A program made the translations under genes and the position numbers. Source: Algihabitans albus (GTDB lineage Bacteria > Pseudomonadota > Alphaproteobacteria > Kiloniellales > DSM-21159). From it: a stretch of 24,000 nt of DNA. Of the stretch, positions 1 through 23,667 are shown piece after piece (the stretch's first letter is position 1; every line of letters starts with the position of its first letter). The notes under the pieces were generated by a model. That model had not been told where the DNA came from, did no database searches, and saw only the letters and a program-made list of their open reading frames with translations. The stretch lies in NCBI RefSeq assembly GCF_042140275.1, contig NZ_CP159482.1; one strand, written 5' to 3'.

Positions 1-264
1 GATAAGAACCACTGCCGGGAAAACCGCGCCATAGACGATATCGGCAAAGCCGTCCAAGCTCTTGCCCATTCTCGCGACGTCCGGCGGCCGGTTGCTGGTC
101 CTGGCCGCAACGATGCCGTCCAAGTCGTCCGCCAAGGCGGCCCACAGCACGGCCGCCACACCCAGTTCAACGCTCCCGGCGAGAACGAGATGGAAGCCCA
201 AGGCGGAGAAGAGCAGACCCGCTATGGTGATTGCATTAGCCGGGTCGATGAGAAAGCGTAGCAT
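1..264 (-). CDS. CDP-alcohol phosphatidyltransferase family protein, PssA-like (copy 1). Only the N-terminal 88 codons are in the window; the gene continues past the left edge.
   Basis: Absent from the ORF track because it runs off the window. Manual minus-strand translation from ATG 264..262 gives MLRFLIDPANAITIAGLLFSALGFHLVLAGSVELGVAAVLWAALADDLDGIVAARTSNRPPDVARMGKSLDGFADIVYGAVFPAVVLI. It has hydrophobic TM segments and the family motif DxxDG..AR..GxxxDxxxD (DDLDG, AAR, GKSLDGFAD). It starts 36 nt after the stop of the upstream nucleotidyltransferase. Confidence 0.75.
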   Translation of the reverse strand, partial: MLRFLIDPANAITIAGLLFSALGFHLVLAGSVELGVAAVLWAALADDLDGIVAARTSNRPPDVARMGKSLDGFADIVYGAVFPAVVLI

Positions 265-300
265 TGTGCTGCTCCGGAAGCGCTGCTGCTTGGTCGCCCC

Positions 301-1092
301 TTACTCGGCGGCTCGGATGTCGTCACCTTTGCGGCCGGGCCCAAAGATCGCTTCGGCGGTGCCGAGATCAGCCAGGCTGTCGATTTCGAACCACTTCAAG
401 TCTCCGCAGTGCACGGCATCGAGAGAGACGTTCCGCTGTTCCACGAGCTGCTTGAGCAACTGCTCGACATATGCGGTCACGGCGCCCGATTGGATCAGGC
501 GGTCAAGCGCCGGGCGTAGCTGACCTGCAAGCGTTTCGGCGCTGAACTTGAAGAGATTGAGCGTCTTGAACAGGTCCTGACCTGCGGTCGTGTCGCCTGT
601 CTGGTTCATATGGATGGATTGAACATGGTTCGACGCAGAGAGCGTGACTGCCGATCCACCCATCGTCGCGTCGAAGGGCGCTATGGCGGCGCTATCGCGG
701 GAGTCGCCTGTCAAAAGCCGTGACAGAACTTCGGGTTCGAAGAAGACATCTCCTTCGAGAAGAAGCGTATCCTCGCTCAGCGCGTCTCTTGCCAGCCACA
801 GAGAGTAGGCGCTGCCGGTACGGTCGAATAGCGGCGATTCGCAATAGGTGATCTCCACACCGGCGAAGTGGTGTCCGCAGGAGCGGATGATGGCTTCCTT
901 CCTGTAACCCACCACGATTGTCACTTCTTCGATGCCGGAGTGTGCCAGACAAAGAAGTGCATTGTGCAAGATGGGAACGCCGTGGACTTGGACCAGCGGC
1001 TTCGGGCGCCTCGCGGTTATCGGCTGGAGGCGGGATCCGAGGCCTGCCGCGAGGATGATGGCGCGCCGAACGACGTGCGTGGATTGAGTCAT
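301..1092 (-). CDS. LicC/PntC-like nucleotidyltransferase (copy 1); candidate phosphonate cytidylyltransferase
   Basis: 263-aa ORF with ATG at 1092 and a GGAGA SD 6 nt upstream. N-terminal NTP-transferase signature AIILAAGLGSRL..RPKPL. C-terminal WFEIDSLADL, typical of LicC-type cytidylyltransferases. Clear paralog of ORF 4286..5098. Confidence 0.85.
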   Translation of the reverse strand: MTQSTHVVRRAIILAAGLGSRLQPITARRPKPLVQVHGVPILHNALLCLAHSGIEEVTIVVGYRKEAIIRSCGHHFAGVEITYCESPLFDRTGSAYSLWLARDALSEDTLLLEGDVFFEPEVLSRLLTGDSRDSAAIAPFDATMGGSAVTLSASNHVQSIHMNQTGDTTAGQDLFKTLNLFKFSAETLAGQLRPALDRLIQSGAVTAYVEQLLKQLVEQRNVSLDAVHCGDLKWFEIDSLADLGTAEAIFGPGRKGDDIRAAE

Positions 1093-1147
1093 AGGTCGTC
1101 TCCACTGTGGTGACTTCTGGCGGTGTGCCGTCTGCCGGCGGACCTTC

Positions 1148-2338
1148 TCAGGCGAGTTCGCGCAAGGTTTCAGCTATTCGGGTTAGTCCCTGCTCGAGCT
1201 GCGCCAGCGGCAAGCCGTAGGAGAGGCGCAAGCCCCGGAGGTCTCCGAAGGCGTTGCCTGGCACCGTCGCGACACCGGCGTCGTCCAAGAGCAGTCGGGC
1301 GACATCGTCGGCCGACCCGAGCTCCCGTCCGCCGGCGCTGCGGCCGCAGAGATCGCCGACGTCGAGATAGAGGTAGAAGCCACCCTCGGCAGTGGGCAGA
1401 GGAACCCCGTCGAGCTGCGAGATCATCTGCAGGCTTCGCGCCCGCTTGAGGGCGAGCTCAGCCCGAGCCTCTCGAACGAAGCTGTCGTCGTTTTGCTCCA
1501 GGTAGGCCAGGATGGCGTATTGGGCGATGACGTTCGGGTTTGAGGTGGTGTGGCTTTGCAGGGCCTTGACCGCCGAGACGACCTCGCGCGGACCGGCCAA
1601 GTAGCCGATCCGCCAACCGGTCAGGGCCAGAGCCTTGGAGAAGGAATTCACCACCAGCGTCCGCGGGCGGGCGTCTGGCGCCACTGTCAGGATATTGGCG
1701 TGCGTCGCTGGTGCATAAACGAACTCGTGATAGCACTCGTCAAAGATGATCCAGATATCGCGCTCCAGAGCGAAGGCTGCGACCTGAGCCAAGAACGCCT
1801 CGTCGTACACGCGGCCTGTAGGATTGTTTGGTGAGTTGAGTATTATGGCCCGCGTCTTCCCACTTGTCGCGGCCGTGAGCTTCTCGAGGGAGGGGAGGTA
1901 GCCGTCGTCGGCGGTATCCAAATAGACCGGCGTTGCTCCGGCGATCGCCACCTGCGCCGGGAAGGTGCTCCAGTAGGGTCGAGGTACGATAACTTCGTCG
2001 CCTGGGTCCAGGATGGTCATGGTGGCGTTGAAGAGTGCCTGTTTCGCACCAGCGGTCACGGCGATCTCGCCGGCTTCCCAGAACAGTCCGGTCTGTCGGG
2101 CGACCCTCTTGGCGACCGCCTGGCGTAGCGTCTCCAAGCCAAGGGTGTCGGTGTAGCGGCTGACGCCTCCCTCGATCGCGGCGATCGCGGCCGAACGGAT
2201 GATCTGCGGCGGTTTCGACCAGAGTTCGCCAGCGGAGAAATCGATGATCTCGCGCCCTTCCGCCGCCGCCCTTTTGGCGGCAAGGCGGGCGTTGGACGTT
2301 CCGGAGCTGGCGAATAGCGTTGTTCGCTGCGCGAGCAT
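1148..2338 (-). CDS. Class I PLP-dependent aminotransferase (aspartate aminotransferase family); candidate phosphonopyruvate transaminase
   Basis: 396-aa ORF. Motifs NSPNNPTG and SFSKALALTGWRIGY (PLP lysine in SFSK). AGGAGA SD before ATG 2338. Starts 13 nt after the PEP mutase stop. Confidence 0.9.
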   Translation of the reverse strand: MLAQRTTLFASSGTSNARLAAKRAAAEGREIIDFSAGELWSKPPQIIRSAAIAAIEGGVSRYTDTLGLETLRQAVAKRVARQTGLFWEAGEIAVTAGAKQALFNATMTILDPGDEVIVPRPYWSTFPAQVAIAGATPVYLDTADDGYLPSLEKLTAATSGKTRAIILNSPNNPTGRVYDEAFLAQVAAFALERDIWIIFDECYHEFVYAPATHANILTVAPDARPRTLVVNSFSKALALTGWRIGYLAGPREVVSAVKALQSHTTSNPNVIAQYAILAYLEQNDDSFVREARAELALKRARSLQMISQLDGVPLPTAEGGFYLYLDVGDLCGRSAGGRELGSADDVARLLLDDAGVATVPGNAFGDLRGLRLSYGLPLAQLEQGLTRIAETLRELA

Positions 2339-2351
2339 GACGCTTCTCTCC

Positions 2352-3320
2352 TTAGTCGGCTGCTCCGGCGCGCAGAGGCAAGGCTTCGGTCACGTCCTGC
2401 TCAGGGTGAATTGGCAGGTAGGTCCGCTCGGCGCTGGAGAGCTCGGCGTAGTCGAGCAACTCGAAGATCTCCTTCAAGGTCGCGATCTCGCCTTCGACGT
2501 CTGCGACGCTCTCGTCGCGCCGAACCCGTTCGCAGAGCAGCTGCATGGCAGCTGCGGCGGCTCGCATGTTATGATTGCCCCAGATCACCGCCGAGACGCC
2601 GGCGCTGCGGAAGCGCTGCATCGGCGTTCGGTAGTAGGTCGTCGGGACGATGACGACCGGACGTTTATTGTCCCACGCCTCGACGAAGCCGAGTATCTCG
2701 CTTGCGTCGGAGAGGCGCGAGTGGATCAGGATTGCATCGGCGCCTGCATCTCCGTAGCGATGCGCGCGGTCGAGCGCCTCCTGCAATCCGTGCCCGGCAA
2801 TCAGGGCTTCGATACGGGCCACCACCACGAAATCGTCGTCTCCAGCCGAGTCGCGGGCGGCCCTCAGGCGGCCGCAGAACTCCTCCACGCCGGCGAGAGG
2901 ATGCCGGTCTCCAACGAAGGAGTTCATCTTCGGGAACTGCTTGTCCTCCAGGCAGATCCCGGCGGCGCCGCGATGACTCAGCTTGCGAACGAGGAGGCGA
3001 ACGTTATTGAAGTTTCCGAACCCGCTGTCGCCATCGACCAGGATGGGGATCGACGTAGAGTCCGCCATACGCTCGACCACGTCGACGACTTGGCTCCAAG
3101 ACGCTTCGTTGGCATCTCGCAATCCCAGCGCTGTCGAGATCGAGAGGCCCGATGCCCAAATCCCGGAGAATCCGTTGCGCTCTACGATAAGTGCCGAGAG
3201 GGCATCGTGCGCCTCCATGAGAAACGCTAGCTCTTCGGACTGGATTGCACTGCGTAGAGTCTGGGATTTCGTTCTGAGAGGCAGGGATGCCGTCGTAGGG
3301 CCATAGGGGTCAGTTTTCAT
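2352..3320 (-). CDS. ppm: Phosphoenolpyruvate phosphomutase (PEP mutase)
   Basis: Carries the Ppm-diagnostic motif EDKX5NS (EDKQFPKMNS). Also GIWASGLS, DGDSGFG, ARIEA and ILIHS, which match mutase active-site positions. The track start at 3350 is TTG. ATG at 3320 is preceded by GAGGTGG, so I use 3320. Confidence 0.9.
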   Translation of the reverse strand: MKTDPYGPTTASLPLRTKSQTLRSAIQSEELAFLMEAHDALSALIVERNGFSGIWASGLSISTALGLRDANEASWSQVVDVVERMADSTSIPILVDGDSGFGNFNNVRLLVRKLSHRGAAGICLEDKQFPKMNSFVGDRHPLAGVEEFCGRLRAARDSAGDDDFVVVARIEALIAGHGLQEALDRAHRYGDAGADAILIHSRLSDASEILGFVEAWDNKRPVVIVPTTYYRTPMQRFRSAGVSAVIWGNHNMRAAAAAMQLLCERVRRDESVADVEGEIATLKEIFELLDYAELSSAERTYLPIHPEQDVTEALPLRAGAAD

Positions 3321-3450
3321 TTTCCACCTCGGGTTTCTTGGAGAACTCAATAAATATGAGAATTTATATTGATATACTCAACATAATCATTTAAAATATA
3401 TTAGGTCATACGAGTTAATTCCGGCTTTTACTTTAACTCCAAGAGTTGTA
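3321..3450 (-). promoter_or_regulatory. AT-rich island A; candidate promoter/operator region for ppm-aminotransferase-NTase1-PT1
   Basis: 26% G+C by hand count over 3341..3440, in otherwise GC-rich DNA. It lies directly upstream of the ppm ATG. It shares collinear motifs with island B. Confidence 0.45.
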
Positions 3451-4166
3451 GGGCTTATAAGCAGATTCCCGACCCAGTTTGCGTCGTGAGCATGAGGTCG
3501 GTGTCTATACGCAGTTCCAGCGTCCGACAGGCACAGGGCCTGTGCGCTGCGAACGCCGGCGCGGGCTCTAGCCAGAGTCCGAAACGTCAGCGCGGCTGAC
3601 GCTGAGACACTGAAGAGCGTGATGATGGCCCTGCCGGCAGCGGGGATCCTGGTTGAGGCGACGTGGAGTGCGGCGAAGCCCAGGAAGAGGCAGCACAGCA
3701 GAGTCGGAAAGCTCTCGTCCGGGAGCCATGGGCGCGCCAGAAAGGCGATTGCCAGGAGCGGTACGTCGTAGGACAGAGGCCCTCCGAGAAAGTGCTCGTC
3801 GTCGAAGAGACCGAAGTTGCTGCAGTGGCTGAGGCGGACCGCGCCGCTCACCAGCAGCGCCAGAGCTGCAAAGAGCGAGAGCAGCGACCCTTCGCCGATC
3901 TGAAGCAGCACGGCTGCCGGAAAAGCGGCGCCGTAGATGAAGTTGGCAAAGCCGGTGAGGCTCTTGCCGATCATCGCTGCTTCCGACGAGCGGTTGCGCG
4001 AGCGGCAGGCAACAACGCCGTCGAGATGGTGTGCCAGCATGGCCCAGAGCGCAATGGCGACAGCCAGCTCCAGTTCGCCTGCAAGCGCGACGTACAGACC
4101 CAGCGTCGAGCACCCCAGACCGGCGATCGTGATCACATTAATGGAATCGGCAAGGTGGCGGGGCAT
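3387..4166 (-). CDS. CDP-alcohol phosphatidyltransferase-like membrane protein (copy 2) with a degenerate catalytic motif
   Basis: The track ORF 3387..4394 overlaps the upstream gene. Alignment to copy 1 (MPRHLADSINVITIAGL vs MLRFLIDPANAITIAGL) puts the start at ATG 4166. Multiple hydrophobic helices. The motif region reads AHHLDGVVACR...GKSLTGFANFIYG, so three of four conserved Asp are replaced. The last ~25 codons run into AT-rich DNA. Confidence 0.65.
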   Translation of the reverse strand: MPRHLADSINVITIAGLGCSTLGLYVALAGELELAVAIALWAMLAHHLDGVVACRSRNRSSEAAMIGKSLTGFANFIYGAAFPAAVLLQIGEGSLLSLFAALALLVSGAVRLSHCSNFGLFDDEHFLGGPLSYDVPLLAIAFLARPWLPDESFPTLLCCLFLGFAALHVASTRIPAAGRAIITLFSVSASAALTFRTLARARAGVRSAQALCLSDAGTAYRHRPHAHDANWVGNLLISPTTLGVKVKAGINSYDLIYFK

Positions 4167-4285
4167 TGTCTCACTTCCGTGCCAGCGATCGACAGCTGTG
4201 GGAGCAGCTGCAGCGGACGTCTCTCGTTTCCGATCGCCCGACGCGAGGGCGAAGCTGAAGCGGCTGCCCTGATTGCGATCGTTTG

Positions 4286-5098
4286 TCAGATTGCCAAGGC
4301 AGGGCGGAGAGAGAAGGCGGCGTCGCCAAGGTCGTTCGGTGTCAACTGCCTTTCCGCCATCTGGAGATCGCTTTCCTTGTCGATCTCGAACCACTTGAGG
4401 CGGTCGCAGCGGACGGCCGCAAGTTTCAAGCGCTCCTGCGCAGCCAGCATGCTTAGCAGTTGTTCCGTATAGGCCGTGACGGCGCCGGAGCGGATGAGGC
4501 CGTCCAGGGCCGGCAGCACCGCCTGTCGCAGGCTGTCGGCGGAGAAACGGAAGAGGTTGATGGTTTTATAGAGCGCTGTCGCACCGGTCTGTCGGTCGGC
4601 GGGCGTCTGCTTTAGCCGGACGTCCTGCACGTAGTTCTTCGCGCAGAGCGTCACTGCCGATCCTTCCATCGTCTCGTCAAAAGGCGCGACTGCGGCCACG
4701 TCCGACTCTCGGGACGAGAGGACGCGATCCAGCACGGCGCGCTCGAAGAAGACGTCGCCCTCCAGCAAAAGGCAATCGCCTGCCATCAGCGCATCGCGCG
4801 CCAGCCATAACGAATAGGCGCTTCCAGTCCGGTCGAAGACTCCGGATTCACAATAGGTGATCTCCAGATCACCGAAGTACTGGCCGAAGAACTTCTGAAT
4901 TCTCTCTTTCCGGTAGCCCACGACGATGGTGGCCCTTTTGACGCCGGCAGCTTCGAGCTGATGCAATGCATGGTGCAGCAGCGGAACGCCGAAAATCGGG
5001 ACCAGCGGCTTTGGGCGGTCGTCGGTCAGGGGGCGCAGGCGGGAGCCGAGACCGGCGGCAAGAATCACGGCACGCTCTGGTACGGCTCGATCCGTCAT
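4286..5098 (-). CDS. LicC/PntC-like nucleotidyltransferase (copy 2)
   Basis: 270-aa ORF with ATG 5098 and a GAAGGA upstream. Motifs AVILAAGLGSRL..RPKPL, ITYCES..FDRTGSAYSLWLARDAL..LLLEGDVFFE and WFEIDKESDL. Roughly 55-60% identical by eye to ORF 301..1092. Confidence 0.85.
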   Translation of the reverse strand: MTDRAVPERAVILAAGLGSRLRPLTDDRPKPLVPIFGVPLLHHALHQLEAAGVKRATIVVGYRKERIQKFFGQYFGDLEITYCESGVFDRTGSAYSLWLARDALMAGDCLLLEGDVFFERAVLDRVLSSRESDVAAVAPFDETMEGSAVTLCAKNYVQDVRLKQTPADRQTGATALYKTINLFRFSADSLRQAVLPALDGLIRSGAVTAYTEQLLSMLAAQERLKLAAVRCDRLKWFEIDKESDLQMAERQLTPNDLGDAAFSLRPALAI

Positions 5099-5269
5099 GA
5101 GCTGCTATTCCTTCTGTCCTGAAAGGTGCCGCGCGATGCTGCAGCAAGCAAAGCGCAGGCGTGCCCGAGTTCGTCGAGAGAGCATCGGGACGTCCGACTT
5201 TGCGGCGCCGCTGCGGGGAATGCCTGTTGAAGCTGGTGCATCTCCCCAGAAAGCGACGGGGCGCCAGTG

Positions 5270-5375
5270 TATTCAAATAAATAAGACTAAATATATTCAG
5301 AATTGTATTATGCAGTTATTTAAATATATGAAAAATTTTATTTTTGTTTGATTCTAAGCAGCACGTTTTTTTGCA
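5270..5375 (-). promoter_or_regulatory. AT-rich island B; candidate promoter/operator region for NTase2-PT2
   Basis: 19% G+C by hand count over 5271..5370. It lies inside a 450-nt non-coding gap between the gntR-like stop and the NTase2 start. Confidence 0.45.
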
Positions 5376-5547
5376 TTCAGGGTAAATCTGTCTGGCACGA
5401 TTACCCCGACGAAGCGCTGCCGACAGGCGTTCGAAAGCTCGGCTTTGACGCGATAAGGCGCTGTATCTGCCGGGGTCGCTCGGCTGTATCCCCGGATCGG
5501 CTCTATCTGCCGTACCGACCCGCAGGACGGAGCCGGAAAACACTGGG

Positions 5548-6273
5548 TTATAAGCGCGCCTCGCCGTTCGCAATCCCGTGGTACTCCGCGCCGTTCGAGA
5601 GAAAGGCCCGGGCAAGTCCCTCTCTGGCGAGCAGGGGCAGGTTTTCGTGCTTCCGCTGATGCAGGCGATCGAGCTGCTTGACGGCGTCCGCTGTCTTCCC
5701 GGCTCGGAGGTTCGACACAAGCCGTGTCAGTTCTGGGCGGATCTGACCGAGGTGTCCTTCGCTGGAGAGATCCATAACCCGCATGTAATGGCTCTTGTCG
5801 TTGAAGCCGCGAATGCAGGAGACCATCAGAGGGTTTCTCGACAGAGCCGCGATAGTGACATAGAGACGCTCGATGCGCCGAGCCAGGAGGTCGTGGCTGT
5901 CCTTTTGGTTGGGTGTGCCGGTCGTGATCTCGTCGTCGTCAAAGCGAAACTCTTCGAAGCGCCGCTCTTCTTTGGCTGCTTCCAACCCGAACCGCAGGCT
6001 GTGCTTCAGCACGACGAAGGCGAACTCGTAAAGCGCGCGCAGCTCCTCGACGTCCAACTGTTTGCAGAAGAAGCCGCGGTTGGGCACACCGACGATCAGG
6101 TCCTCGGCGAGCAGGCGGCTCAGGGCTTCGCGAACCGGCGTCGGACTGAGGTCGAGCTCTTCGGAGAGCTCGTTGATCTGCAACTGCTCGCCGGGTCTGA
6201 AACGTGCGTTAACCACCAGCTCTTTGATCCGCCCGTAGGCCAGTTCGACCTTCTTCGCCTCGATCCTAGCCAT
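5548..6273 (-). CDS. GntR-family transcriptional regulator, FadR-like (N-terminal wHTH plus helical FCD-type C-domain)
   Basis: 241-aa ORF. The N-terminus YGRIKELVVNARFRPGEQLQINELSEELDLSPTPVREALSRLLAEDLI is a typical GntR wHTH. ATG 6273 with a GGGAGG upstream. Confidence 0.85.
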   Translation of the reverse strand: MARIEAKKVELAYGRIKELVVNARFRPGEQLQINELSEELDLSPTPVREALSRLLAEDLIVGVPNRGFFCKQLDVEELRALYEFAFVVLKHSLRFGLEAAKEERRFEEFRFDDDEITTGTPNQKDSHDLLARRIERLYVTIAALSRNPLMVSCIRGFNDKSHYMRVMDLSSEGHLGQIRPELTRLVSNLRAGKTADAVKQLDRLHQRKHENLPLLAREGLARAFLSNGAEYHGIANGEARL

Positions 6274-6637
6274 AGGTCCCTGCCTCCCGCTTGCGGCCGG
6301 ATAAGCTTGAGAGGTCTGTGAGATAGGACAGCAAATCGTTTGGAGCGCGCGAACCCACTTCTCCTTGTTTCGCAGTTGTCCGCCCGGGACAAACCGATCG
6401 TACGCCAGATGATTCCTTGCGCCCTATCGCGCCACACACCGCCAACTCCGCGGCCTATTCCGGCAATCGAAACTTTTCCGATACAAAAGTGTCATCTTTT
6501 GCATTGGAATCCACCTACCAAGGTTGGTGACTCGACAATATAGGCGAGAATACGTCGTCGGCTAATATCGCCAACGGAGAGGTCTTTCAGTTTTTGCTAT
6601 GGTATTGTTCTTACTCGAAAGACAGCTGCGAAGTCTC

Positions 6638-7297
6638 TCAACCGACCCTTCGTTGAGTACGGTCTCCAGCCTCGAGCGCTTCTGACGCCAAGCCGACCTC
6701 AACGAGGGGCGAACCGCTCAAACTTCCGGACTGCTGCACGGCCTGCAGCACCTGAGCTGAGACTTCCAGGCGTGCCGCAGCGATCCGATGGCGTCCCCAC
6801 TGAACCGGCGGACCGACGAACTCCACGGGGCAGCCCGCCTTCTCGATTACGTGACTGTAGATCTTCAGCGGCATAACGCAGAGATAGCGCGTGATGCCAT
6901 GGCGTAGGCCGTAGGCTTGGCAGGCGGCGATCAGTTCGTGCACCACCCTGCGGCGGAGGTTGGGCGGGATCGCTCGGGTGACACCGAAGCGCGTCGCCTC
7001 CCAGATACTCTCTCCTTCCTCGAAGCGATGGTCGACCAGCCGTGGCCAGATCGTTCGGATCATGTAGGGCCGGGTGGTGGGCAAGAGCCGCGTTATGCCG
7101 CAGGCTTGGCCGTTGGTGTCCAGACGGACGATGTACTTGGCAGCCGGCGTGTCGAACTGATCGTATTCCAGTCCGTTGTAATGCGGGACATCCCAACCCT
7201 GACGCCGCACGAAGAGTTCGTAGCGCAGCCGGTGCTGGGAGACCCAGGCCTCCCCGCAGCGGTGTGCGCTTTCCCAGTCGAAGCACAGAGCGGTCAT
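6638..7297 (-). CDS. LuxI-family acyl-homoserine-lactone synthase
   Basis: Conserved LuxI residues are present in HRLRYELFVRRQGWDVPHYNGLEYDQFDT (R, F, W, E, D, D) and in WEATRF. The track start 7324 is TTG. ATG 7297 has a strong AGGAGAG SD 5-6 nt upstream. Confidence 0.9.
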   Translation of the reverse strand: MTALCFDWESAHRCGEAWVSQHRLRYELFVRRQGWDVPHYNGLEYDQFDTPAAKYIVRLDTNGQACGITRLLPTTRPYMIRTIWPRLVDHRFEEGESIWEATRFGVTRAIPPNLRRRVVHELIAACQAYGLRHGITRYLCVMPLKIYSHVIEKAGCPVEFVGPPVQWGRHRIAAARLEVSAQVLQAVQQSGSLSGSPLVEVGLASEALEAGDRTQRRVG

Positions 7298-7390
7298 GGA
7301 TCTCTCCTGCCTTTTCACAGGCAAGGAGAGCAGAGTGAAGAGGGCGCGACAGCTACTTGGGCTGGCAATAGATGAGATGTCGAGAAACCG

Positions 7391-8119
7391 CTAAACTAAC
7401 AGAAGCCCCTTTTGTATCGCTCGAACGATCGCAGCGATACGGCTTCCGGTTTCAAGTTTTCGCATTGCATTCTTTATATGATGATTGACCGTATTTGGGC
7501 TAATTCCCAGAATGGTGCCTGTGTCCCAGGACGACTTGCCCATCGCGCTCCAATAGAGGCACTCCCGCTCGCGGCGGGAGAGAATGGGCGAATCAGGGTC
7601 TTCATCACAGCGCACCAGCAGGCGCGTAGAGACGGATCGAAAGTGCTGGGCGGCCGCCTGCAGTTGAACCACGCGGTTCTCGGCAATGGCCTGTCCGCTT
7701 TCTTCCGCAAAACTGACCACGGCGAGACTGCAATTAGGGCCGTGCAGCGGCACGGTTATGCCGCCTTTCAAGCCGAAGTCGGCCGCCTCGTCGAGAACGC
7801 GTCGCTCTTCACCGTCGGTCGTGGTGCTGCGTCGGATGTCGCTCCACTGGAAGGCCGCCGCCTGACGGAGACTCTGTGACAGAACCGGATCGATCTTCTC
7901 GTAGCCGCGCTCGAAGTAGCGAGCTTGCCACTCGACGGGATAGTTGAGGAAAACCGCCGGATAAGACGGGGTCGGGATGGCAAGGTCTTTGTGATCCGTA
8001 AGAGAACCGTAAGCGGTCCAAGGAAACCCCAGGCCTTGGGCGAAACAGGCTAGCCGGTCGAAGGCGTCTCTGGCGTCGGTGGCATCGCTTGCCTCTTCCA
8101 GGAACCGGGGAAGGTCCAT
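7391..8119 (-). CDS. LuxR-family AHL-responsive transcriptional regulator
   Basis: The track ORF extends to 8251 with a basic, low-complexity N-extension. ATG 8119 (MDLPRFLEE..) has a GGAGA SD and gives a typical 242 aa. Autoinducer-domain residues present: W..Y, YEKIDP, FQW, GGITVP. C-terminal HTH: LSRRERECLYWSAMGKSSWDTGTILGISPNTVNHHIKNAMRKL. Confidence 0.9.
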   Translation of the reverse strand: MDLPRFLEEASDATDARDAFDRLACFAQGLGFPWTAYGSLTDHKDLAIPTPSYPAVFLNYPVEWQARYFERGYEKIDPVLSQSLRQAAAFQWSDIRRSTTTDGEERRVLDEAADFGLKGGITVPLHGPNCSLAVVSFAEESGQAIAENRVVQLQAAAQHFRSVSTRLLVRCDEDPDSPILSRRERECLYWSAMGKSSWDTGTILGISPNTVNHHIKNAMRKLETGSRIAAIVRAIQKGLLLV

Positions 8120-8279
8120 GTGCGCTATCTCCAAAACTATGGAACTTGACCGCCCCTCTTGCTTTGACCTTCCGGACCCTTCCTCTCTTGCTCCGGGCCG
8201 CCATGACGGCGCTGGTCGAGCTTTTCCCCTTTTGGTTGCCAACACCGCCACGCCGACGGTCCCGCCGCTTGGCTGAGAT

Positions 8280-8450
8280 ACGTCAAGAACAGTTCACTTC
8301 AACTATATAGGTTGACCTATCAAACAGACTATTTCAACCATCTGGAAAATAACATTATTGTAGCATATTGATCTATATTATACGGTAAACGATTACAATT
8401 CTGTATAACTCTGATTTCCTGAGAGATTTTGTAGAGGTTTTGAAGATATC
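8280..8450. promoter_or_regulatory. AT-rich island C, upstream of the luxR-type gene
   Basis: 28% G+C by hand count over 8331..8430. Contains the palindrome ATAGGTtgACCTAT at 8307..8320. Confidence 0.35.
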
Positions 8451-8850
8451 GAACATGCGTTCTCCGCTGCTTGGACAACGACTGCGCCGCCAGCAGAAAC
8501 TGGAGGGTAGGGGGATCACAGGCCTCCGTTCCTTCCGGGCCGGCGTCATTCGGCCCGTCGACGACCGTGAGGGCCGGCGGTCCCTGGTCAGCCGTTCGCA
8601 CTGCCGCGGCGACGTGATGGGAACACGCTTCCATCCGTTCGATGCGGCCATACGGCCAAATCCGGATCACCCACCCGTCATACGCGCGCCCTGCTCTAGT
8701 TGTTCTTAAGTATCTGCATCTTATGATTGATGAGGCGCCTGACTGCAGTGACGCGTATACCCCCTAACGCCCGTTCCAATATGTTCCCTTTGACGATACT
8801 CATCGCGGCGCTTTCCAAGTGCCTCAGATTGTGCCTAGGGAAGCGGTCGA

Positions 8851-9081
8851 GTGTCGGAGCATAATCACGTCATGAACATGTCCATACCCGGTGACGCACG
8901 TCAGAAGCCCGCCAAGCACGGCCGCAAACGTATCCGTATTCTGGAAAGCGCATTGCAGTTGATATCGCAACAGGGACTGGAGAACATCGGGCTGAGAGAG
9001 ATCGCCGCGCATCTCGATATGACGCACCCGGCGCTCTACTACTATTTCAAGTCTAAGGCCGCGCTACTGGACCTTCGCTGA
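8851..9081 (+). pseudogene. Truncated TetR-family regulator (HTH domain only)
   Basis: RILESALQLISQQGLENIGLREIAAHLDMTHPALYYYFKSKAALL is a canonical TetR N-terminal HTH. The ORF stops after 76 codons, and no frame downstream resembles a TetR ligand domain. In-frame ATGs at 8872 and 8878. Confidence 0.6.
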
Positions 9082-9378
9082 AGGCTATCCGCGCACCCCA
9101 TCCAACAAGGTGCGCAAGCAGCAACTGCGCGATCAGATCAGGGGGCAGCAGGCCTACGACCTGGCCGCAAAACAGCTGGTCACACTATAAGCGGGCGACC
9201 CAATAGCCCACGGCAAAGCCGTTCTGACGAGACGATGATCTGCTCGACCGCTGCCCGGATGTCGTCGCCGGTCGGCGCTCAAGCTCTTGGGGTCAAGTCA
9301 TGCCATAGCCGACCAGTGAAAGAGATTGCGGTCGCGTCAATCTGTGTCGACTCAATAGCGCGCACCCGAAGTCGTTGC

Positions 9379-10161
9379 TCAGACCTTGGCGCGTTCTTCC
9401 ACGAGGCCTCCGGGCGGGGTTCGGCGCAGCAGGTAGATATCCATGATCCAGCCGTGCCGGTCGCGGGCGGCGGCGCGGGCCGCGACGATCTTCGGCCCGA
9501 TCTCGGCAAGCGGGCCGCTGAACAGGCGTTCCTCGGGCATGCCCAGGTAGGCGCCCCACCAGATCGTCACATTCTCTTCGCGCAGAACCTGGAAAGCGCA
9601 GTCGCCGTCGAGCATGACGACCAGCGTGTCGACCTCCCCGGGCCAGCCGGACTCGCGCAACCGCCGCCCCGTGGTCACGAGAAACGGCGCCCCGATCTCG
9701 TTGAGTGGAATCCTATGAGCCGCGGTCAAGGCCTGAATAGCCGTGATCCCGGGGATCATCCGAAGACGCGGTGGCGGCTCCAGCCGCGCCGCGATGCGAA
9801 GCGCGCTGTCGTAGAGCGAGGGATCGCCCCAGATCAGCAGAACGACATGGTCGGGCGTCGGAGTCCGGGTGGAGACGGCCTCGGTCCAGGCTGCCGCGAT
9901 CGCCTCGTGCCAAGCCTCTACGCCGGCGCGGTAGTTCGGGTCCGTCGCATCGCGTCGCGGCAGGTCGAACTCGGCGATCTCTGTGGAGCGGTTGGTCAGC
10001 ACGCGGTCGCAGATCTGCCGACGCAGATCGGCCAGGTCCGCCTTGTCGCTGCCCTTGCGCGGGATGAGAATCAGGTCGGCCACATTGATGGCGGCCGCTC
10101 CCTGATAGGTCAGGTGATCGGGATTGCCGGTTCCGATGCCGATCAGGGTCAGCTCACGCAT
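9379..10161 (-). CDS. cobF: Precorrin-6A synthase (deacetylating)
   Basis: 260 aa. Tetrapyrrole-methylase N-terminus MRELTLIGIGTGNPDHLT. WGDPSLYDS and IPGITA motifs. Length and domain layout match CobF. ATG 10161 overlaps the cobA stop by 8 nt. Confidence 0.88.
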   Translation of the reverse strand: MRELTLIGIGTGNPDHLTYQGAAAINVADLILIPRKGSDKADLADLRRQICDRVLTNRSTEIAEFDLPRRDATDPNYRAGVEAWHEAIAAAWTEAVSTRTPTPDHVVLLIWGDPSLYDSALRIAARLEPPPRLRMIPGITAIQALTAAHRIPLNEIGAPFLVTTGRRLRESGWPGEVDTLVVMLDGDCAFQVLREENVTIWWGAYLGMPEERLFSGPLAEIGPKIVAARAAARDRHGWIMDIYLLRRTPPGGLVEERAKV

Positions 10162-10894
10162 CGTGGTCGTCCGGCCCGGTCTCGGCCAGCGGTCCGTACA
10201 GGATGAGAGCCGGCTGGCTGCCGGGATCGGCCGCCAGCCGTTCGGCCAGCGCCGCCACCGTGGTGCGGTGCAGCCGCTGCTCGGGTCTGCTCACCAACTC
10301 GGCCAGCAGCGCAGGGGTCGACGGCGGAAGGTCCAGCGCGATCAGCGCCTCGGCCAGCTTGGGAAAGGTCCTGCGGCCCATGAAGACCACGGTGGTCGCC
10401 GCGGGATCGGCCAGGGGCGCCAGGTCGAGATCGCCGGGCAGGGTGCCGTTGCTGTCGTGCCCGGTCACGAACTGGACTCGCCGCGCGGTCAGCCGCCGCG
10501 AGAGAGGGATGCCGGCGGCAGCGGCGGCGGCGCAGGCCGAGGGGACGCCGGGAATGATTTCATGCGCGATCCCCGCCGTTCGCAGGGCGGTCAGTTCCTC
10601 CTCCAGGCGCCCGAAGATACCGGCATCGCCCGACTTGAGGCGCACGACCCGGGCGCCCCCGATGGCATAGTCGACGAGAAGGCGGCTGACGTGACTCTGT
10701 TTCGGAGAGGGCCGCCCGGCGCGCTTGCCGACCCCGACGAGATCGGCGCCGCCGCGGGCATGGGACAGGATCGGCCCCGCCGAAAGGTCGTCGAACAAAA
10801 CCGCGTCCGCCGCCTGCAAGCGTTTGACCGCCTTGAGTGTCAGAAGCTCCGGGTCTCCGGGGCCGGAACCGATGAAGCTGACGAACCCTGTCAT
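10154..10894 (-). CDS. cobA: Uroporphyrinogen-III C-methyltransferase (SUMT)
   Basis: 246 aa. Motifs FIGSGPGDPELLTLKAV, RLKSGDAGIFGR and IPGVPSA. ATGA overlap with the cobB stop. Confidence 0.88.
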   Translation of the reverse strand: MTGFVSFIGSGPGDPELLTLKAVKRLQAADAVLFDDLSAGPILSHARGGADLVGVGKRAGRPSPKQSHVSRLLVDYAIGGARVVRLKSGDAGIFGRLEEELTALRTAGIAHEIIPGVPSACAAAAAAGIPLSRRLTARRVQFVTGHDSNGTLPGDLDLAPLADPAATTVVFMGRRTFPKLAEALIALDLPPSTPALLAELVSRPEQRLHRTTVAALAERLAADPGSQPALILYGPLAETGPDDHDA

Positions 10895-12213
10895 CCGCCG
10901 GCCTCGGCGATCAGGTGAAAGAAGCTTCCGGTGACTCTGCCGCGGTGCGATCCGGTCTCGGCCACCGCAGCGCCGTCGGCATCGGCCACCTTGGCCAAGG
11001 GAGCGTCGGGTTGTTCGAGGATTGTCGAGTAGTGAAACTCGTGCCCTCGCAGACGCGCCCCGACCCCGAAGCCGGGAATGGGTGCGGTCAGGCGCGCCTG
11101 GCGGTACCCCAGGTGGAGTTTGCGCTTCTCATAGCTCGTCACAAGACCGAGCAGGCCGGCCATGGGATGGGACTGTCCATGCTTGTCCACCAGGGCCTGA
11201 CCGAGGGCCATGTAACCGCCGCACTCTCCATGTACAGGGCGGGTCTCGGCATGGGCGCGCAAGCCCTCGTGAAAGCGGCCCGCCGCCGCCAGCCGGCCCG
11301 CATGCAGCTCGGGATAGCCGCCCGGCAGCCAGACGATGTCCGCGGTCGGGTCCGGGGCTTCGTCGGTCAGGGGAGAGAAGGGCAGGATCTCCGCGCCGGC
11401 GACGCGCCAGCTTTCCAGAAGGTGGGGATAGACGAAGGAGAAGGCTTCGTCCTGTGCCAGCGCTATGCGTTGCGCAGGCGGCGGCGGTAAGGCGCTGGGG
11501 CTCCGGGAGACGTCGGCTTTTGCGGCAGCGGTGCGGATTGCGGCCAGGTCACTGTGGGCGCGCAGGAAGGCCGCGTAGGCGGCGATGGCTTCGTCCAGGT
11601 CGGGATGCTCCACTGCCTGGATCAGTCCGAGATGGCGCTCCGGCAAGGTCAGGTCGCCTTGCCGCGGCAGGGCGCCCAGCACCGGCAGGCCCACCCGTTC
11701 CATGCCCAGCCGGGCCAGGCGCTCGTGGCGGGGACTCGCGACTCGATTGAGGATAACGCCGGCGAAGGGCAGATCGTCACGGTAGCGGGCGAAACCCAGG
11801 GCGGTGGCTGCGGCGGACTGGGCCTGCCCGCCCACATCCAGAACCAGCAGGACCGGCCAACCCAGGAGTGCGGCGGTCTCGGCGCTCGAGCCCCAGCCGC
11901 TCTCGCCCTGGGTGGCGACCCCGTCGTAGAGCCCCATCGAGCCCTCGGCGACGATCAGATCGGCGCCTTCGGCGCGCGCCGCTATGGTCGCCAGCAGGCC
12001 GCGGTGCATCGCCCAGGTGTCCAGATTGAAGGAGCCGCGGCCGGCAGCGGCGCGGTGAAAGGCCGGGTCGATGTAGTCGGGACCGCTCTTGAAGGGTTGG
12101 ACGGTCAATCCGTCCTCGGCGAAGGCGCGCAGCAGGCCGAGCATCACGGTGGTCTTGCCGCTGCCCGAGCTGGGGGCCGACACCAGCAGGCCTGGAGGAC
12201 TAGTCATCGCCAT
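10891..12213 (-). CDS. cobB: Hydrogenobyrinate/cobyrinate a,c-diamide synthase
   Basis: [12 protein letters not shown] nucleotide-binding N-terminus and a C-terminal glutamine amidotransferase with ECGGYM. The track start 12306 lies inside cobM. ATGs at 12213 and 12207 ([11 protein letters not shown]) overlap the cobM stop by 14 or 8 nt. Confidence 0.88.
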
Positions 12214-12985
12214 CGCCCTCCACCGACTTGGGCCGAAAGCGGCGATCGTAGTCGGCGGCGTAAAGGCGGCTCTCCTGAAAAGCTTCGGCGGCCAGCGCCG
12301 GGCCAACGAGGATCAGCGCGGTGCGCTCGATCGCGTGCTTCTCCCGCTGCAAGGTGACTTCGAGGTTTGCCAGCGTGGCGCGGAGGATTCGCTCGTCCGG
12401 CCAGCTCGCACGATAGACGATGGCTGCCGGGCAGTCGGGTCCGTAGGCGGGCGTCAGGGTCTGCACGACCTCCGCAAGCTTGTGAATCGACAGGTGAATG
12501 GCCAGGGTGGTGCCGGTCTTCGCGAAGTTCGCCAGGCTTTCGCCGGGCGGCATGGCAGAGGCACGGCCGGGCGTGCGGGTCAGCACGAGAGACTGGGCAA
12601 GGCCGGGCAGCGTCAACTCCGCCTGCAGCGCCGCCGCCGCAGCCGCGAAGGCAGGCACCCCAGGCGTGACGCTGACCGGGATGCCTTCCGCGCGCAGACG
12701 GCGCAGCTGTTCACCCATGGCCGACCAGATCGAGAGATCGCCGGAGTGCAGCCGTGCCACGTCCAGCCCCTCGGCGTGGGCGCGCCGGCATTCGGCCAGG
12801 ATTGCCTCCAGGTCCAGCGGGGCGGTGTTGATCACCCTTGCATCCGGCGGGCAGTGCGTCAGCACCGCCTCCGGGATCAGCGATCCGGCATAGAGGCAGA
12901 TAGGGGATGCCGCAATCAGGTCCCGGCCGCGCAAGGTCAGAAGGTCCGGGGCGCCGGGACCGGCCCCGATGAAGTGCACGGTCAC
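12200..12985 (-). CDS. cobM: Precorrin-4 C11-methyltransferase
   Basis: 261 aa. Motifs [27 protein letters not shown] and TPGVPAF. GTG start in a GTGA overlap with the cobE stop. Confidence 0.9.
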
Positions 12986-13350
12986 CGCAATCCTCCCAGG
13001 GCGAGGGCGCAGGTGGCGCGACCGTCGGCTGAAATGCAGCGCGTCGACAGCAGCTTGGCGCCGGCCCCCGCACCGACGAGAGCGCTGGCTTCCGCCACGC
13101 TGCCGGTGCCGTAACGCTGCAGCGCCGGGGGGCTTCGGGTCGGCGTTTCGCAGCGGGCCAGAGCCTGGGCGGAGATCGCCCGCACCGGCAGCCCAAGCAG
13201 GCCGGCGAGGCCATGAAGGCAGGCGGCCTGCGCCTTGTCCTCGGGTGCGCAGAGCGCCGCGACCTCATGGCTGCCGGCCGCGCGGGCGAGCGCGTCGCGC
13301 AGGCTCTCCGTCGTCGCGATGCTGCGAAAGCCGAAGCCGGCAACGATCAT
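12982..13350 (-). CDS. cobE: CobE / CbiG C-terminal-domain protein
   Basis: The track ORF is over-extended to 13542. ATG 13350 forms an ATGA overlap with the cobL stop. [10 protein letters not shown]...LGLPVRAIS...[14 protein letters not shown] resembles the CbiG_C/CobE family. Confidence 0.75.
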
Positions 13351-14546
13351 AGCGTTACGCTCCACTGCACCAGCGGATAGGCAGCATGCCAGCTGCGCTT
13401 GCTGCCCAGCGGCCCGGCTTCCGACAGGTCGATGCGCAGGAGGCTGCCGCCCTTGCGCGCCTGCCAGGCGGTCAGGAGCGATTCGGATTCCAGGGTGACC
13501 GCGTTCGAAACCAGGCGCGTGCCCGCCGGCAAACGTGACCAAAGGTCGGTCAACAGGGCGTCCGAGAGGCCGCCGCCGATGAAGACCGCATCCGGGACCG
13601 GGAGGGTTTCCAGAGCCTCCGGTGCCTGTCCCTCAATCACCTCCAGCCGGTCGACCCCAAGCGTCTCCGCGTTGCTGCGGATGCGCGCGGCTCTGTCGGG
13701 TCGGGTCTCGATCGCCGTCGCCCTGTTGGCCGGGTGGCACAGCAGCCACTCGATCCCGACCGAGCCAGCGCCGGCGCCGATGTCCCAAAGATGAGCGCCC
13801 GCGACCGGCGCCAAGGCCGAGAGGGTCAGCGCACGGAGGGGGCGCTTGGTGATCTGCCCGTCGTGATCGAAGAAATCGTCGGGCCGCCCGGAAGCCGTTG
13901 GGATCGCTCGGCCGTCGCCCGCGATCTGCAGCCCGACGCAGACCGGGTGGTGGATATCGGCGAGAGTCATCGTTTCGGCCGTCGCCCGGCGTAGCCGTTC
14001 GCGCGGACCGCCCAGAGCCTCCATGACCCAGAGTTCGGTCGGCCCGAATCCCCGCTCCGCGAGCCAGGCGGCCAGCTGCCCCACCGCGGTGCCGTCGCGC
14101 AGCAGCACCAGAAGCTTTGCCCCGGACGCCAGGTGCGGGCGCAAGCGTGCGAAGGGGGCCGCATGCAGGGCGAGACAGGGCGTCCGCTCCAGCGGCCAGC
14201 CGAGCCGCGCGGCCGCCAGCGAAAGGCTGGAGGGGGCCGGCAGGGCGCGCCACTCGCCGGCCTCCAGCTGTTCGGCCAATATGGTGCCGGCACCGAACCA
14301 GAAGGGATCGCCTGAGGCCAGCATGACGACCCGCCGGCCGCGCAGGTTCAGCAGCTTGGGAATCCCCTCTGCGAAGGGGACCGGCCATGCCTGCGTCTCG
14401 GCGGTCAATGCCGGCAGAAGTGCGAGAAGCCGGCTCGCGCCCATGACCACCTCGGCCTCGTCCAAGGCTTGCCGGCTTGCCGGCGACAGGCCCTCGGGTC
14501 CATCCTCCCCGAGTCCGATGATGGTCAGCCAGGGAACCTCAGCCAT
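13347..14546 (-). CDS. cobL: Precorrin-6Y C5,15-methyltransferase (decarboxylating)
   Basis: CbiE-like N-domain (LTIIGLGEDGPEGLS, ASGDPFWFG) fused to a CbiT-like SAM methyltransferase (LWDIGAGAGSVGIEW). The track start 14555 is TTG. ATG at 14546 gives MAEVPWLTIIG. Confidence 0.9.
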   Translation of the reverse strand: MAEVPWLTIIGLGEDGPEGLSPASRQALDEAEVVMGASRLLALLPALTAETQAWPVPFAEGIPKLLNLRGRRVVMLASGDPFWFGAGTILAEQLEAGEWRALPAPSSLSLAAARLGWPLERTPCLALHAAPFARLRPHLASGAKLLVLLRDGTAVGQLAAWLAERGFGPTELWVMEALGGPRERLRRATAETMTLADIHHPVCVGLQIAGDGRAIPTASGRPDDFFDHDGQITKRPLRALTLSALAPVAGAHLWDIGAGAGSVGIEWLLCHPANRATAIETRPDRAARIRSNAETLGVDRLEVIEGQAPEALETLPVPDAVFIGGGLSDALLTDLWSRLPAGTRLVSNAVTLESESLLTAWQARKGGSLLRIDLSEAGPLGSKRSWHAAYPLVQWSVTL

Positions 14547-21826: not shown

Positions 21827-21849
21827 CGGCCGCAATCACATCGTGAGGG

Positions 21850-23260: not shown

Positions 23261-23414
23261 CGGTGCCCCGGACTGCAGAGGCTGCACGCCGAACGTTCGT
23301 CGACGGCCGATTGTCTCTCGATCAACATGCGCCCCTTCCGAAAAGGGGACAAGGGCGGATGGCGGGCGTAGCAGGCGCCGGACCCGTCACCGGAGCACCC
23401 CGTCCGGTTCACGT

Positions 23415-23620: not shown

Positions 23621-23667
23621 GCAATGCGTGATCGGACACCCAGTTGTCAAGCTCGCGGGAGGTTGCC

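Follow-up and report, generated by a model that had tools for sequence, protein, structure and literature searches.

A phosphoenolpyruvate mutase-aminotransferase cassette with nucleotidyltransferase and CDP-alcohol transferase genes in Algihabitans albus: a candidate route to phosphonoalanine-derived conjugates

Gene content of the locus

The window analysed here is a stretch of 24,000 nucleotides of Algihabitans albus contig NZ_CP159482.1. Its first 5.1 kb hold six co-oriented genes on the minus strand, read from position 5098 to position 1 in the order NT1, CDP1, Ppm, AT, NT2 and CDP2, the last of which is cut at the window edge. They code for a phosphoenolpyruvate (PEP) mutase (Ppm) and an aminotransferase (AT), accompanied by two nucleotidyltransferases (NTases; NT1 and NT2) and two proteins of the cytidine diphosphate (CDP)-alcohol phosphotransferase family (CDP1 and CDP2), and form a candidate operon for phosphonate biosynthesis independent of phosphonopyruvate decarboxylase (Ppd). 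The gene identities put forward in the original prediction, which was made from the sequence of the window, agree with the results of Pfam and NCBIfam profile searches, and all the motifs quoted there are present at the expected positions on the minus strand. The genes are as follows.

4286-5098, minus strand: NT1, LicC/PntC-like nucleotidyltransferase, 270 aa, first gene of the operon (PF00483, 7.6e-15; PF12804)
3387-4166, minus strand: CDP1, degenerate CDP-alcohol phosphotransferase paralogue, 259 aa (no Pfam model matched; weak PssA-type NCBIfam matches)
2352-3320, minus strand: Ppm, PEP mutase, 322 aa from the ATG at 3320 (PF13714, 2.4e-61)
1148-2338, minus strand: AT, class-I (aspartate-type) aminotransferase, 396 aa (PF00155, 1e-62)
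301-1092, minus strand: NT2, second LicC/PntC-like nucleotidyltransferase, 263 aa (PF00483, PF12804)
1-264, minus strand: CDP2, intact CDP-alcohol phosphotransferase, cut after the first 88 of its 202 codons (PF01066, 28.4 bits; cut-off 22)

Contigs of the same lineage were reached through a homology search with CDP1. Two of them, L051 (from ERZ25067570; 99.4% identical to window positions 1-8359) and L055 (from TARA sample SAMEA6015799; 97.8% identical), are metagenomic; in these and in L054 the complete CDP2 has 202 aa. Exact-sequence look-ups with the AT and NT2 of the window gave no match.

The mutase

The Ppm reading frame extends past the ATG at 3320 to a TTG at 3350, but a GAGGTGG Shine-Dalgarno sequence precedes the ATG, and in L051 the gene is likewise called with 322 aa. 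The protein contains the motifs EDKQFPKMNS (residues 135-144, window positions 2919-2948), DGDSGFG (3015-3035), ARIEA (2805-2819) and ILIHS (2718-2732). True PEP mutases (PepM) are distinguished by the active-site motif EDK-x5-NS, with which the first of these sequences complies. Ppm scores 357.1 bits on the PEP-mutase equivalog model TIGR02320, above its cut-off of 319.55, and 242.3 bits on the model for the phosphonopyruvate hydrolase PalA, TIGR02321, below its cut-off of 374.4, in line with the original view of this protein as a genuine mutase and against a PalA-type hydrolase.

L052 and L053, the loci most closely related to this one, have a second PEP-mutase-family gene, located on the other strand (positions 3954-4940 in L053). 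The protein from L052 scores 364.7 bits on the PalA model, close below the cut-off, against 277.8 on the PepM model. This pattern is the reverse of that of the window Ppm, and the two models therefore discriminate within the lineage. The comparison bears on a catabolic alternative, according to which the genes would form a PalA/PalB-like pair, with the mutase homologue hydrolysing phosphonopyruvate that the AT makes from imported phosphonoalanine. A GntR regulator does adjoin the genes, PnaA-type transamination is reversible, and the nearest relatives carry the second mutase-family gene, the L052 copy of which scores best on the PalA model. The scores of the window protein itself are those of a mutase, and the NTase and CDP-alcohol transferase genes, which are anabolic, are tightly linked to Ppm-AT. 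The catabolic alternative appears largely removed by the equivalog scores, and we regard it as extremely improbable.

Distribution of the gene cassette

A scan for Ppm in one genome per species yielded 45 loci. The block Ppm-AT-NT-CDP, referred to below as the cassette, is present in L008, L012, L018, L022, L023, L047, L048 and L055, with variants in which a dehydrogenase gene is inserted (L007 and L019) or the CDP gene is divergent (L050). Preceded by a GntR gene, it recurs in Xaviernesmea, Sinorhizobium, Chelatococcus and one alphaproteobacterial metagenome-assembled genome (MAG); the Neorhizobium locus has the same four genes, its contig ending 400 nt upstream of ppm. In Rhizobium puerariae and in a record labelled Agrobacterium vitis pTi, the inserted gene codes for a 2-hydroxyacid dehydrogenase and the transferase is a longer, AF2299-like protein. 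On plasmids the NTase served as a marker: tblastn against PLSDB found NT2 homologues on 55 of them, mainly from Sinorhizobium (16), Agrobacterium (12), Rhizobium (10), Mesorhizobium (8) and Bradyrhizobium (4), and 42 of the 55 are conjugative. In all five plasmids inspected the NTase sits in the cassette, under routine RefSeq names; annotated examples are pMLa of M. japonicum MAFF303099, plasmids of S. meliloti, S. fredii and R. gallicum, and A. tumefaciens pAt2. The cassette has been seen in Rhizobiales plasmids, MAGs and marine contigs.

Some loci depart from this arrangement. The long transferase of the Agrobacterium and R. puerariae cassettes (L019 12990-19093, L007 13992-18127 and L046 12530-15698) carries an N-terminal soluble domain, and these cassettes add genes for SbnB-like ornithine-cyclodeaminase, Y4yA-family decarboxylase-like and SbnA-like PALP proteins. 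On pAt2, several cassette genes are annotated in fragments, several pieces of which are matched by the window AT in tblastn, and they may be pseudogenes. Another architecture within the same family, seen on short contigs, lacks the aminotransferase gene, so that ppm and the NTase gene follow each other directly (L001 2959-4655, L005 10001-11844 and L013 1778-2886); it includes a Hyphomicrobiales MAG, which has the closest Ppm (72%), and Rhizobium mayense.

The aminotransferase and the missing decarboxylase

The AT has a class-I/II aminotransferase fold, with NSPNNPTG at 1814-1837 and the pyridoxal phosphate (PLP)-lysine motif SFSK at 1634-1645 (residues 232-235). As had been noted beforehand, its gene is separated from ppm by only 13 nt and has its own Shine-Dalgarno sequence, GGAGAG, within that spacer. 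The protein shares 42% identity over 395 residues (305 BLAST bits) with the product of the PnaA gene of Streptomyces sp. NRRL B-2790 (L040), and its gene directly follows ppm in all cassette loci. PnaA is a phosphonopyruvate:aspartate transaminase in vitro, which couples with PepM and gives phosphonoalanine from aspartate (PMC11867202). We therefore predict the same activity for the AT, which agrees with the suggestion in the original prediction that transamination to phosphonoalanine takes the place of decarboxylation here. Neighbourhoods of this PalB/PnaA type make up 9.2% of ppm loci, and the phosphonoalamides, which are Streptomyces peptides, were described by Li & Horsman in 2022 as the only known products of PalB-like activity (PMC8942020); the literature searched held no other product of the phosphonoalanine branch.

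The decarboxylase was searched for by tblastn with two Ppd proteins from related loci, verified by Pfam (TPP_enzyme_N/C), and one 2-aminoethylphosphonate (AEP) transaminase (AEPT). No thiamine-diphosphate-dependent decarboxylase of the Ppd type was found in the 24-kb window, as the original prediction had stated. Since a ppd gene just downstream would have changed the picture, it matters that L051 and L055, which together continue the sequence leftward by 13.8 kb, contain neither Ppd nor AEPT. Both are likewise absent within 10 kb on either side of ppm in seven cassette-sharing loci and from five annotated plasmid loci, making twelve related loci in all searched over 8-10 kb on either side. 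The same search detects Ppd in 20 other loci, beside ppm or within about 6 kb of it, from Paenibacillus, two Bradyrhizobium, a Mesorhizobium, Amycolatopsis, Streptomyces and Kitasatospora.

These results also bear on the possibility of an ordinary AEP pathway, in which ppd and the AEP transaminase gene would lie elsewhere in the genome, the NTase would be a PntC making cytidine monophosphate (CMP)-AEP for a phosphonolipid, and the adjacent AT would be incidental or would salvage phosphonoalanine. Ppd is used in about 83% of ppm neighbourhoods (PMC8942020), PntC enzymes prefer AEP (PMC6697681), and the negative result covers the surroundings of the loci, so that a distant ppd would be compatible with it. 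We nevertheless consider an AEP pathway highly improbable, given that the identical search readily detected Ppd near ppm in those 20 loci and found neither enzyme beyond the window or over 8-10 kb around ppm in more than 15 cassette loci, and that the AT invariably stands immediately after ppm.

The nucleotidyltransferases

Both NTases belong to the NTP_transferase fold (PF00483, PF12804) and carry the signature GXG(T/S)RX4-8PK, which in NT1 takes the form GXG(S)RX8PK and reads GLGSRLRPLTDDRPK (5009-5053), and in NT2 reads GLGSRLQPITARRPK (1000-1044). This signature is that of PntC (PMC6697681). The two proteins are 59% identical to each other, and NT2 is 66% identical to the NTase of L018. 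Their nearest relatives of known structure are LicC (1jyk, 3.3e-13), MurU, the PntC-AEPT protein (6pd1, 3.2e-10) and, more distantly, IPCT (2xme). The label "LicC/PntC-like" given to them originally is fair in so far as they are about equally close to both, while their substrate cannot be read from the similarity. Enzymes of PF12804 are known to cytidylylate AEP (PntC) and L-2-amino-4-phosphonobutyrate (FrbH), the latter being a one-carbon homologue of phosphonoalanine (PMC6697681). In a comparison of the window with L054, NT1 has a dN/dS of 0.17, indicating purifying selection; because of this constraint on the first NTase, both are probably in use.

An intact and a decayed transferase

CDP2 contains DDLDGIVAAR (100-129) and GKSLDGFAD (40-66), in agreement with the pattern D1-x2-D2-G-x2-A-R ... 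G-x3-D3-x3-D4 of CDP-alcohol phosphotransferases. Residues D46, D49, G50, D71 and D75 are invariant in 24 intact members of the transferase family, the four aspartates being D1 to D4, whose equivalents in the phosphatidylserine synthase (PSS) of M. jannaschii are the metal-binding and catalytic Asp41, 44, 62 and 66 (PMC8633023). CDP2 and all its orthologues keep the four. CDP1 departs from the pattern, since the corresponding segments read HHLDGVVACR (4002-4031) and GKSLTGFAN (3942-3968), so that H46, T71 and N75 replace D1, D3 and D4, three of the four catalytic aspartates. In addition, the protein has a 3-residue deletion, and its stop codon has been lost, so that about 57 further codons are read into the AT-rich spacer that precedes ppm. 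L051, L054 and L055 share these defects. By contrast, the counterparts from L052 and L053 (P0003 and P0004), 83-86% identical to CDP1, are intact proteins of 202 aa, and in those two loci there is a single NT-CDP pair, located upstream of Ppm-AT.

Nei-Gojobori estimates point the same way. Between the window and L054, dN/dS is 0.71 for CDP1, against 0 for Ppm, 0.19 for AT, 0.19 for NT2 and 0 for CDP2, which has no amino-acid change at all; between the window and L052 it is 0.45 for CDP1 and 0.06-0.16 for the other genes. By rough arithmetic, the chance that three of four specified residues would be changed at about 14% divergence from the intact relatives is near 0.01, and there may have been selection for inactivation of CDP1, beyond relaxed constraint. 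CDP1 is probably an inactive duplicate, and only CDP2 looks active. The original prediction had Ppm-AT flanked on both sides by NTase and CDP-alcohol transferase genes; the genes are indeed present, but the two pairs are not equivalent. We infer an ancestral layout GntR-NT-CDP-Ppm-AT, to which a second NT-CDP pair, with an NTase closest to the L018 type, would have been added downstream of AT; CDP1 would therefore have become redundant and lost constraint. The decayed copy can be seen as a natural experiment, in which the transferases turned out to be redundant and the NTases did not.

A search of the PDB with a single transferase sequence gave no meaningful match, and a profile search and a structure model were used instead. 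The family profile matches AF2299, M. jannaschii PSS, phosphatidylinositol phosphate synthases (PIPS) and DIPPS. An AlphaFold model of P0003, the intact CDP1 orthologue and a homologue of CDP2 (pLDDT 94.3, pTM 0.90), has M. jannaschii PSS (7b1k) as its best fold match, with a TM-score of 0.71 and an E-value of about 1e-6, while PIPS, PgsA and DIPPS follow at E 0.03 or worse. The complete CDP2 of L051 shows about six hydrophobic stretches, consistent with a predicted multi-helix membrane fold. Compared with PSS, the family keeps the equivalent of Arg101, but four extra residues follow its AR motif, Lys68 stands invariantly at the place of Ala59, and Gly72 at that of Ser63, which belongs to the catalytic serine site of PSS. 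These differences set the transferases apart as a distinct PSS-like subfamily, and Lys68, Gly72 and the insertion are candidate determinants of another donor or acceptor.

The state of the two pairs is also relevant to the idea that they make an ordinary phospholipid head group, for example by a CDP-choline or CDP-ethanolamine route, and merely neighbour a Ppm-AT module that releases free phosphonoalanine. The RefSeq name of the NTase, "phosphocholine cytidylyltransferase family protein", and LicC as the best solved match would fit this. It is nonetheless very unlikely in view of the strict linkage to ppm-AT, which holds on Rhizobiales plasmids, in MAGs and in marine contigs, the genes lying closely spaced on one strand; moreover, a CDP copy has decayed only in the lineage with two pairs, which argues that both pairs served one pathway.

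Proposed pathway

The most economical reading of the conserved Ppm-AT-NT-CDP block would be nucleotide activation of a phosphonate followed by its transfer, and nucleotidyl activation is predominant in phosphonate clusters (PMC8942020, PMC6697681). In the scheme that we propose, where all substrates and products are inferred, Ppm would convert PEP to phosphonopyruvate, and the AT would draw this unfavourable equilibrium forward by turning phosphonopyruvate into L-phosphonoalanine, the amino group probably coming from aspartate. NT2, and probably NT1 as well, would then use cytidine triphosphate (CTP) and phosphonoalanine, or a close derivative of it, to form a CMP-phosphonate, from which CDP2 would transfer the phosphonyl group to a hydroxyl acceptor with release of CMP. 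The most likely acceptor would be diacylglycerol, giving a phosphonolipid that resembles phosphatidylserine and might be tailored further by the products of two neighbouring genes described below, the PLP enzyme and the AsnB-like amidotransferase. The general logic, from phosphonoalanine through nucleotide activation to transfer onto an alcohol, is probably correct. For the complete proposal, that is, Ppd-independent biosynthesis of a phosphonoalanine-derived phosphonate monoester with diacylglycerol as acceptor, the gene content of the locus gives tentative grounds that fall somewhat short of an even chance.

Diacylglycerol itself is likewise suggested with reserve. Of the PF01066 enzymes characterised so far, nearly all, to our knowledge, are lipid synthases or act on a lipid. 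The best fold match, PSS, binds a lipid of the diacylglycerol type as well as an amino acid of the serine type, and as a diacylglyceryl-phosphonoalanine synthase would need both kinds of pocket, the match favours diacylglycerol and supports a lipid acceptor. Clusters combining ppm with CDP-alcohol transferase genes have also been filed as phosphonolipid clusters in published predictions (PMC8942020).

Surroundings of the operon and nature of the acceptor

The remainder of the window contains the following features.

5548-6273, minus strand: GntR/FCD-family regulator, directly upstream of the operon (PF00392, 1.7e-14)
6638-7297, minus strand: LuxI-type autoinducer synthase, 219 aa as called in L051 (PF00765, 3.3e-21)
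7391-8119, minus strand: LuxR-type autoinducer-binding regulator, 242 aa as called in L051 (PF03472, 1.1e-30; PF00196)
9379-23169: aerobic cobalamin operon, with cobF, A, B, M, L, K, I, H and G (recognised with family models) and cobN and cobW (recognised from their resemblance to genes annotated on plasmids)
23409-23628, minus strand: cobalamin riboswitch (RF00174, 86 bits)

The G+C content is 0.55-0.65 in the first 9 kb, compared with about 0.70 in the cob genes. On account of this drop the phosphonate and quorum-sensing block looks acquired, and its composition suggests an island. Megablast of positions 1-9000 against plasmids gave no match, so that the island does not correspond to a plasmid sequence already on record; in the rest of the window only the cob genes matched plasmids, at 71-76% identity. 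A GntR gene also adjoins ppm in L007, L008, L012, L018, L019, L022, L046 and L052, and in the related locus L052 a LuxR gene is retained beside it. The GntR gene lies on the same strand as the operon here, and is divergent from ppm in most Rhizobiales loci. A search upstream of the operon for a lux box or operator returned only weak AT-rich palindromes, none of them convincing, and the promoter-like sites there (4, against 2.0 +- 1.3 in shuffled sequence) are not enriched.

Past the left edge of the window (L055 6754-19803; L051 8790-14972), CDP2 is followed by a gene for a DgaE/SelA-like PLP enzyme of 523 aa, frameshifted in L051, and then by genes for an MFS transporter and for an amidotransferase of the AsnB-like type, which exceeds the cut-off of TIGR01536 with 392 bits. 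The opposite strand, convergent to the operon, holds a gene of the PF01663 phosphodiesterase family, five genes for an Opp-type ABC importer (SBP_bac_5) and one for a GntR/UTRA regulator. Together, the MFS, AsnB-like and PLP genes and the convergent phosphodiesterase and importer genes could possibly form a module for export, re-import and hydrolysis. The proteins most closely related to the AsnB-like one are found in the same genera, two of them on the cassette-bearing plasmids themselves (R. gallicum pRgalIE4872c and a 629-kb S. numidicum plasmid), and the AsnB-like gene is therefore a recurrent accessory member. Accessory genes otherwise vary between loci, and include SDR, GNAT, methyltransferase, P450, Ldh_2 and AsnB-like genes as well as several kinds of PLP enzyme.

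The second PLP enzyme had been considered as a universal CobD-like decarboxylase, converting CMP-phosphonoalanine to CMP-AEP by the logic of FrbH. This was rejected, since the enzyme differs between loci, being MocR-effector-like, DgaE/SelA-like or Y4yA/DAP-decarboxylase-like, and CobD-like only in L052. In that locus (7146-12074), a citrate-synthase-like gene, the gene for the CobD-like (threonine-phosphate-decarboxylase-like) enzyme and a PF01663 phosphodiesterase gene stand beside Ppm-AT; as a speculation, the citrate-synthase-like enzyme could consume the oxaloacetate formed in transamination or act on phosphonopyruvate.

Several observations weigh against the complete proposal. The best housekeeping aspartate aminotransferase of known structure reaches 261 HMMER bits with the AT, which is thus only slightly closer to PnaA, and its assignment therefore rests mainly on the conserved adjacency to ppm. 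The NTase may act on a modified phosphonate instead of phosphonoalanine itself. The CDP-alcohol transferase is the sole lipid-related gene seen in or around the locus, while the neighbouring genes (MFS, AsnB-like, DgaE/SelA-like PLP) point to a soluble metabolite that is exported and re-imported, as do the methyltransferase, GNAT, SDR and P450 genes added in other genomes and the Opp-type importer, PF01663 phosphodiesterase and LuxI/LuxR genes nearby. Finally, DIPPS is a member of the same membrane family that acts on purely soluble substrates.

These points lead to an alternative that shares the first three steps but in which the acceptor would be a small soluble alcohol, such as a polyol, a sugar or a hydroxy-amino acid, and the product a secreted phosphonate ester. 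Such a compound could be an antimetabolite or an opine-like "private" compound, exported by the MFS protein, re-imported by the Opp-type ABC system and cleaved by the PF01663 phosphodiesterase. The pairing of NTase and transferase would then mirror that of IPCT and DIPPS, which make a soluble diester; NF041135 is among the matches of the NTase, and 4mnd among the structural matches. Besides the MFS, AsnB-like and PLP genes within the operon and the phosphodiesterase and importer genes adjoining it in L055, the cassette is accompanied by Opp-type ABC genes in L018 and L049 and, in L046, by a gene for a substrate-binding protein (family unstated); variable tailoring genes, carriage on conjugative plasmids of plant-associated bacteria and the adjacency of LuxI/LuxR in the window would also suit a secreted compound. 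On the other side stand the lipid substrates of almost all characterised PF01066 enzymes and the lipid synthase as best fold match; Opp-type importers are abundant in Rhizobiales, where their adjacency may be due to chance, and no candidate enzyme for forming the acceptor was identified. A soluble acceptor, although it has less than an even chance, is in our view a close rival of the lipid. The accessory genes taken by themselves fit a secreted soluble conjugate about as well as the lipid named in the original prediction. That interpretation holds in part, its logic being plausible and ppd absent from the regions searched, but one of the two transferases is degenerate and the novelty was overstated.

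Comparison with known systems

The closest parallel to the first two steps is the phosphonoalamide (pna) pathway, where a PEP mutase (PnaD) and a class-I aspartate-type aminotransferase (PnaA) replace Ppd in the same way. The pna cluster has two ATP-grasp ligases, PnaB and PnaC, whereas no ATP-grasp family is found among the Pfam and NCBIfam matches of the window or of the extension genes in L051 and L055, so the locus is not a pna cluster. It has instead NTases and a CDP-alcohol phosphotransferase, and an alphaproteobacterial host, and its Ppm is only about 40% identical to the phosphonoalamide PepM.

The later steps recall the Burkholderiales_CDP-OH family, the largest catalogued ppm family, which is equated with the Group 1 phosphonolipids of Yu et al. 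and whose predicted phosphonolipid had never been isolated by the time of the survey (PMC8942020). Its seven-gene core consists of a Ppm-PntC fusion, Ppd, AEPT, an oxygenase, a second PntC and two phospholipid genes (PMC8942020). Ppm, two cytidylyltransferase genes and phospholipid genes of the CDP-alcohol transferase type are common to both systems. The Ppd, AEPT, oxygenase and Ppm-fused PntC of that family predict 1-hydroxy-AEP, while the window locus lacks the first three, has free-standing NTases and includes a PnaA-like AT, which places it outside this core. The NTase and CDP proteins of the window gave no tblastn match at 1e-5 in the Burkholderia lata locus L045, whose membership in the family is unconfirmed. 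Since clusters with PntC and CDP-alcohol transferase genes had already been catalogued (PMC8942020), the idea of a bacterial Kennedy-type phosphonolipid pathway is not new as such.

In eukaryotes, choline/ethanolamine phosphotransferases use CMP-AEP and diacylglycerol to form the AEP lipid. That route resembles the proposed one in that a phosphonate is cytidylylated and then transferred to diacylglycerol by a PF01066 enzyme; it differs in that the AEP head group is made via Ppd and handled by the general choline and ethanolamine enzymes, whereas the locus has a clustered set of dedicated enzymes, with a head group that would derive from phosphonoalanine.

LicC of S. pneumoniae (1jyk) and PntC of T. 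denticola (6pd1) share the fold family and the GXG(T/S)RX4-8PK motif with NT1 and NT2, and, like them, adjoin a transferase expected to use the CMP-activated head group. The similarity is confined to the N-terminal 120-150 residues (E 1e-13 to 1e-10), and the predicted substrate of the window NTases bears an extra carboxylate. In the Lic and Pnt glycan systems, the downstream transferase is, as far as is known, of the LicD type and not a PF01066 protein.

As for the transferase, M. jannaschii PSS (7b1k/7pow; bacterial PssA type II) agrees with the family in length, topology, the four aspartates and the Arg101 equivalent, but at only 20-22% identity, and the genetic coupling of the window transferase to NTase and ppm implies a CMP-phosphonate rather than CDP-diacylglycerol as the donor. 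IPCT/DIPPS (4mnd/2xme) offers another pairing of an NTase with a six-helix CDP-alcohol phosphotransferase that takes the NTase product as donor. The matches are weak (NF041135, 52-53 bits, far below the cut-off of 580; fold E 0.18), the two activities are fused in one DIPPS polypeptide, and the substrates are soluble inositol phosphates with no C-P chemistry, so that the resemblance is one of logic only.

Within the literature searched, no paper was found on the cassette in rhizobia or agrobacteria, on CMP-phosphonoalanine or phosphonoalanine lipids, or on the combination of a PnaA-type AT, a free LicC/PntC-like NTase and a PSS-like transferase without Ppd and AEPT, or its product. The operon could conceivably encode the first bacterial Kennedy-type pathway to proceed via CMP-phosphonoalanine and diacylglycerol with a PSS-like enzyme, the product being a non-hydrolysable analogue of phosphatidylserine, but this is on the doubtful side. 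If it were so, decarboxylation of the phosphonoalanine head group could give an AEP lipid, and a Ppd-independent route to phosphonolipids would have spread on conjugative plasmids of rhizobia and agrobacteria and be present in marine alphaproteobacteria. The plasmids carrying the cassette are mostly from nodule- and tumour-forming Rhizobiales, model replicons such as pMLa and the A. vitis record labelled pTi included; a lipid product would amount to a phospholipase-resistant mimic of phosphatidylserine at the plant-microbe interface, and a soluble one to phosphonate esters of a new class, served by a dedicated exporter, importer and esterase. In either case the compact system lends itself to heterologous expression and offers a direct test of whether PF01066 enzymes accept CMP-phosphonates. 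Most elements of the cassette are already known, from the phosphonoalanine branch on the one hand and from the predicted CDP-OH phosphonolipids on the other; what is without precedent in the literature searched is their combination in a compact four-gene core. The cassette is a good, widely distributed target for genome mining and not a categorically new system.

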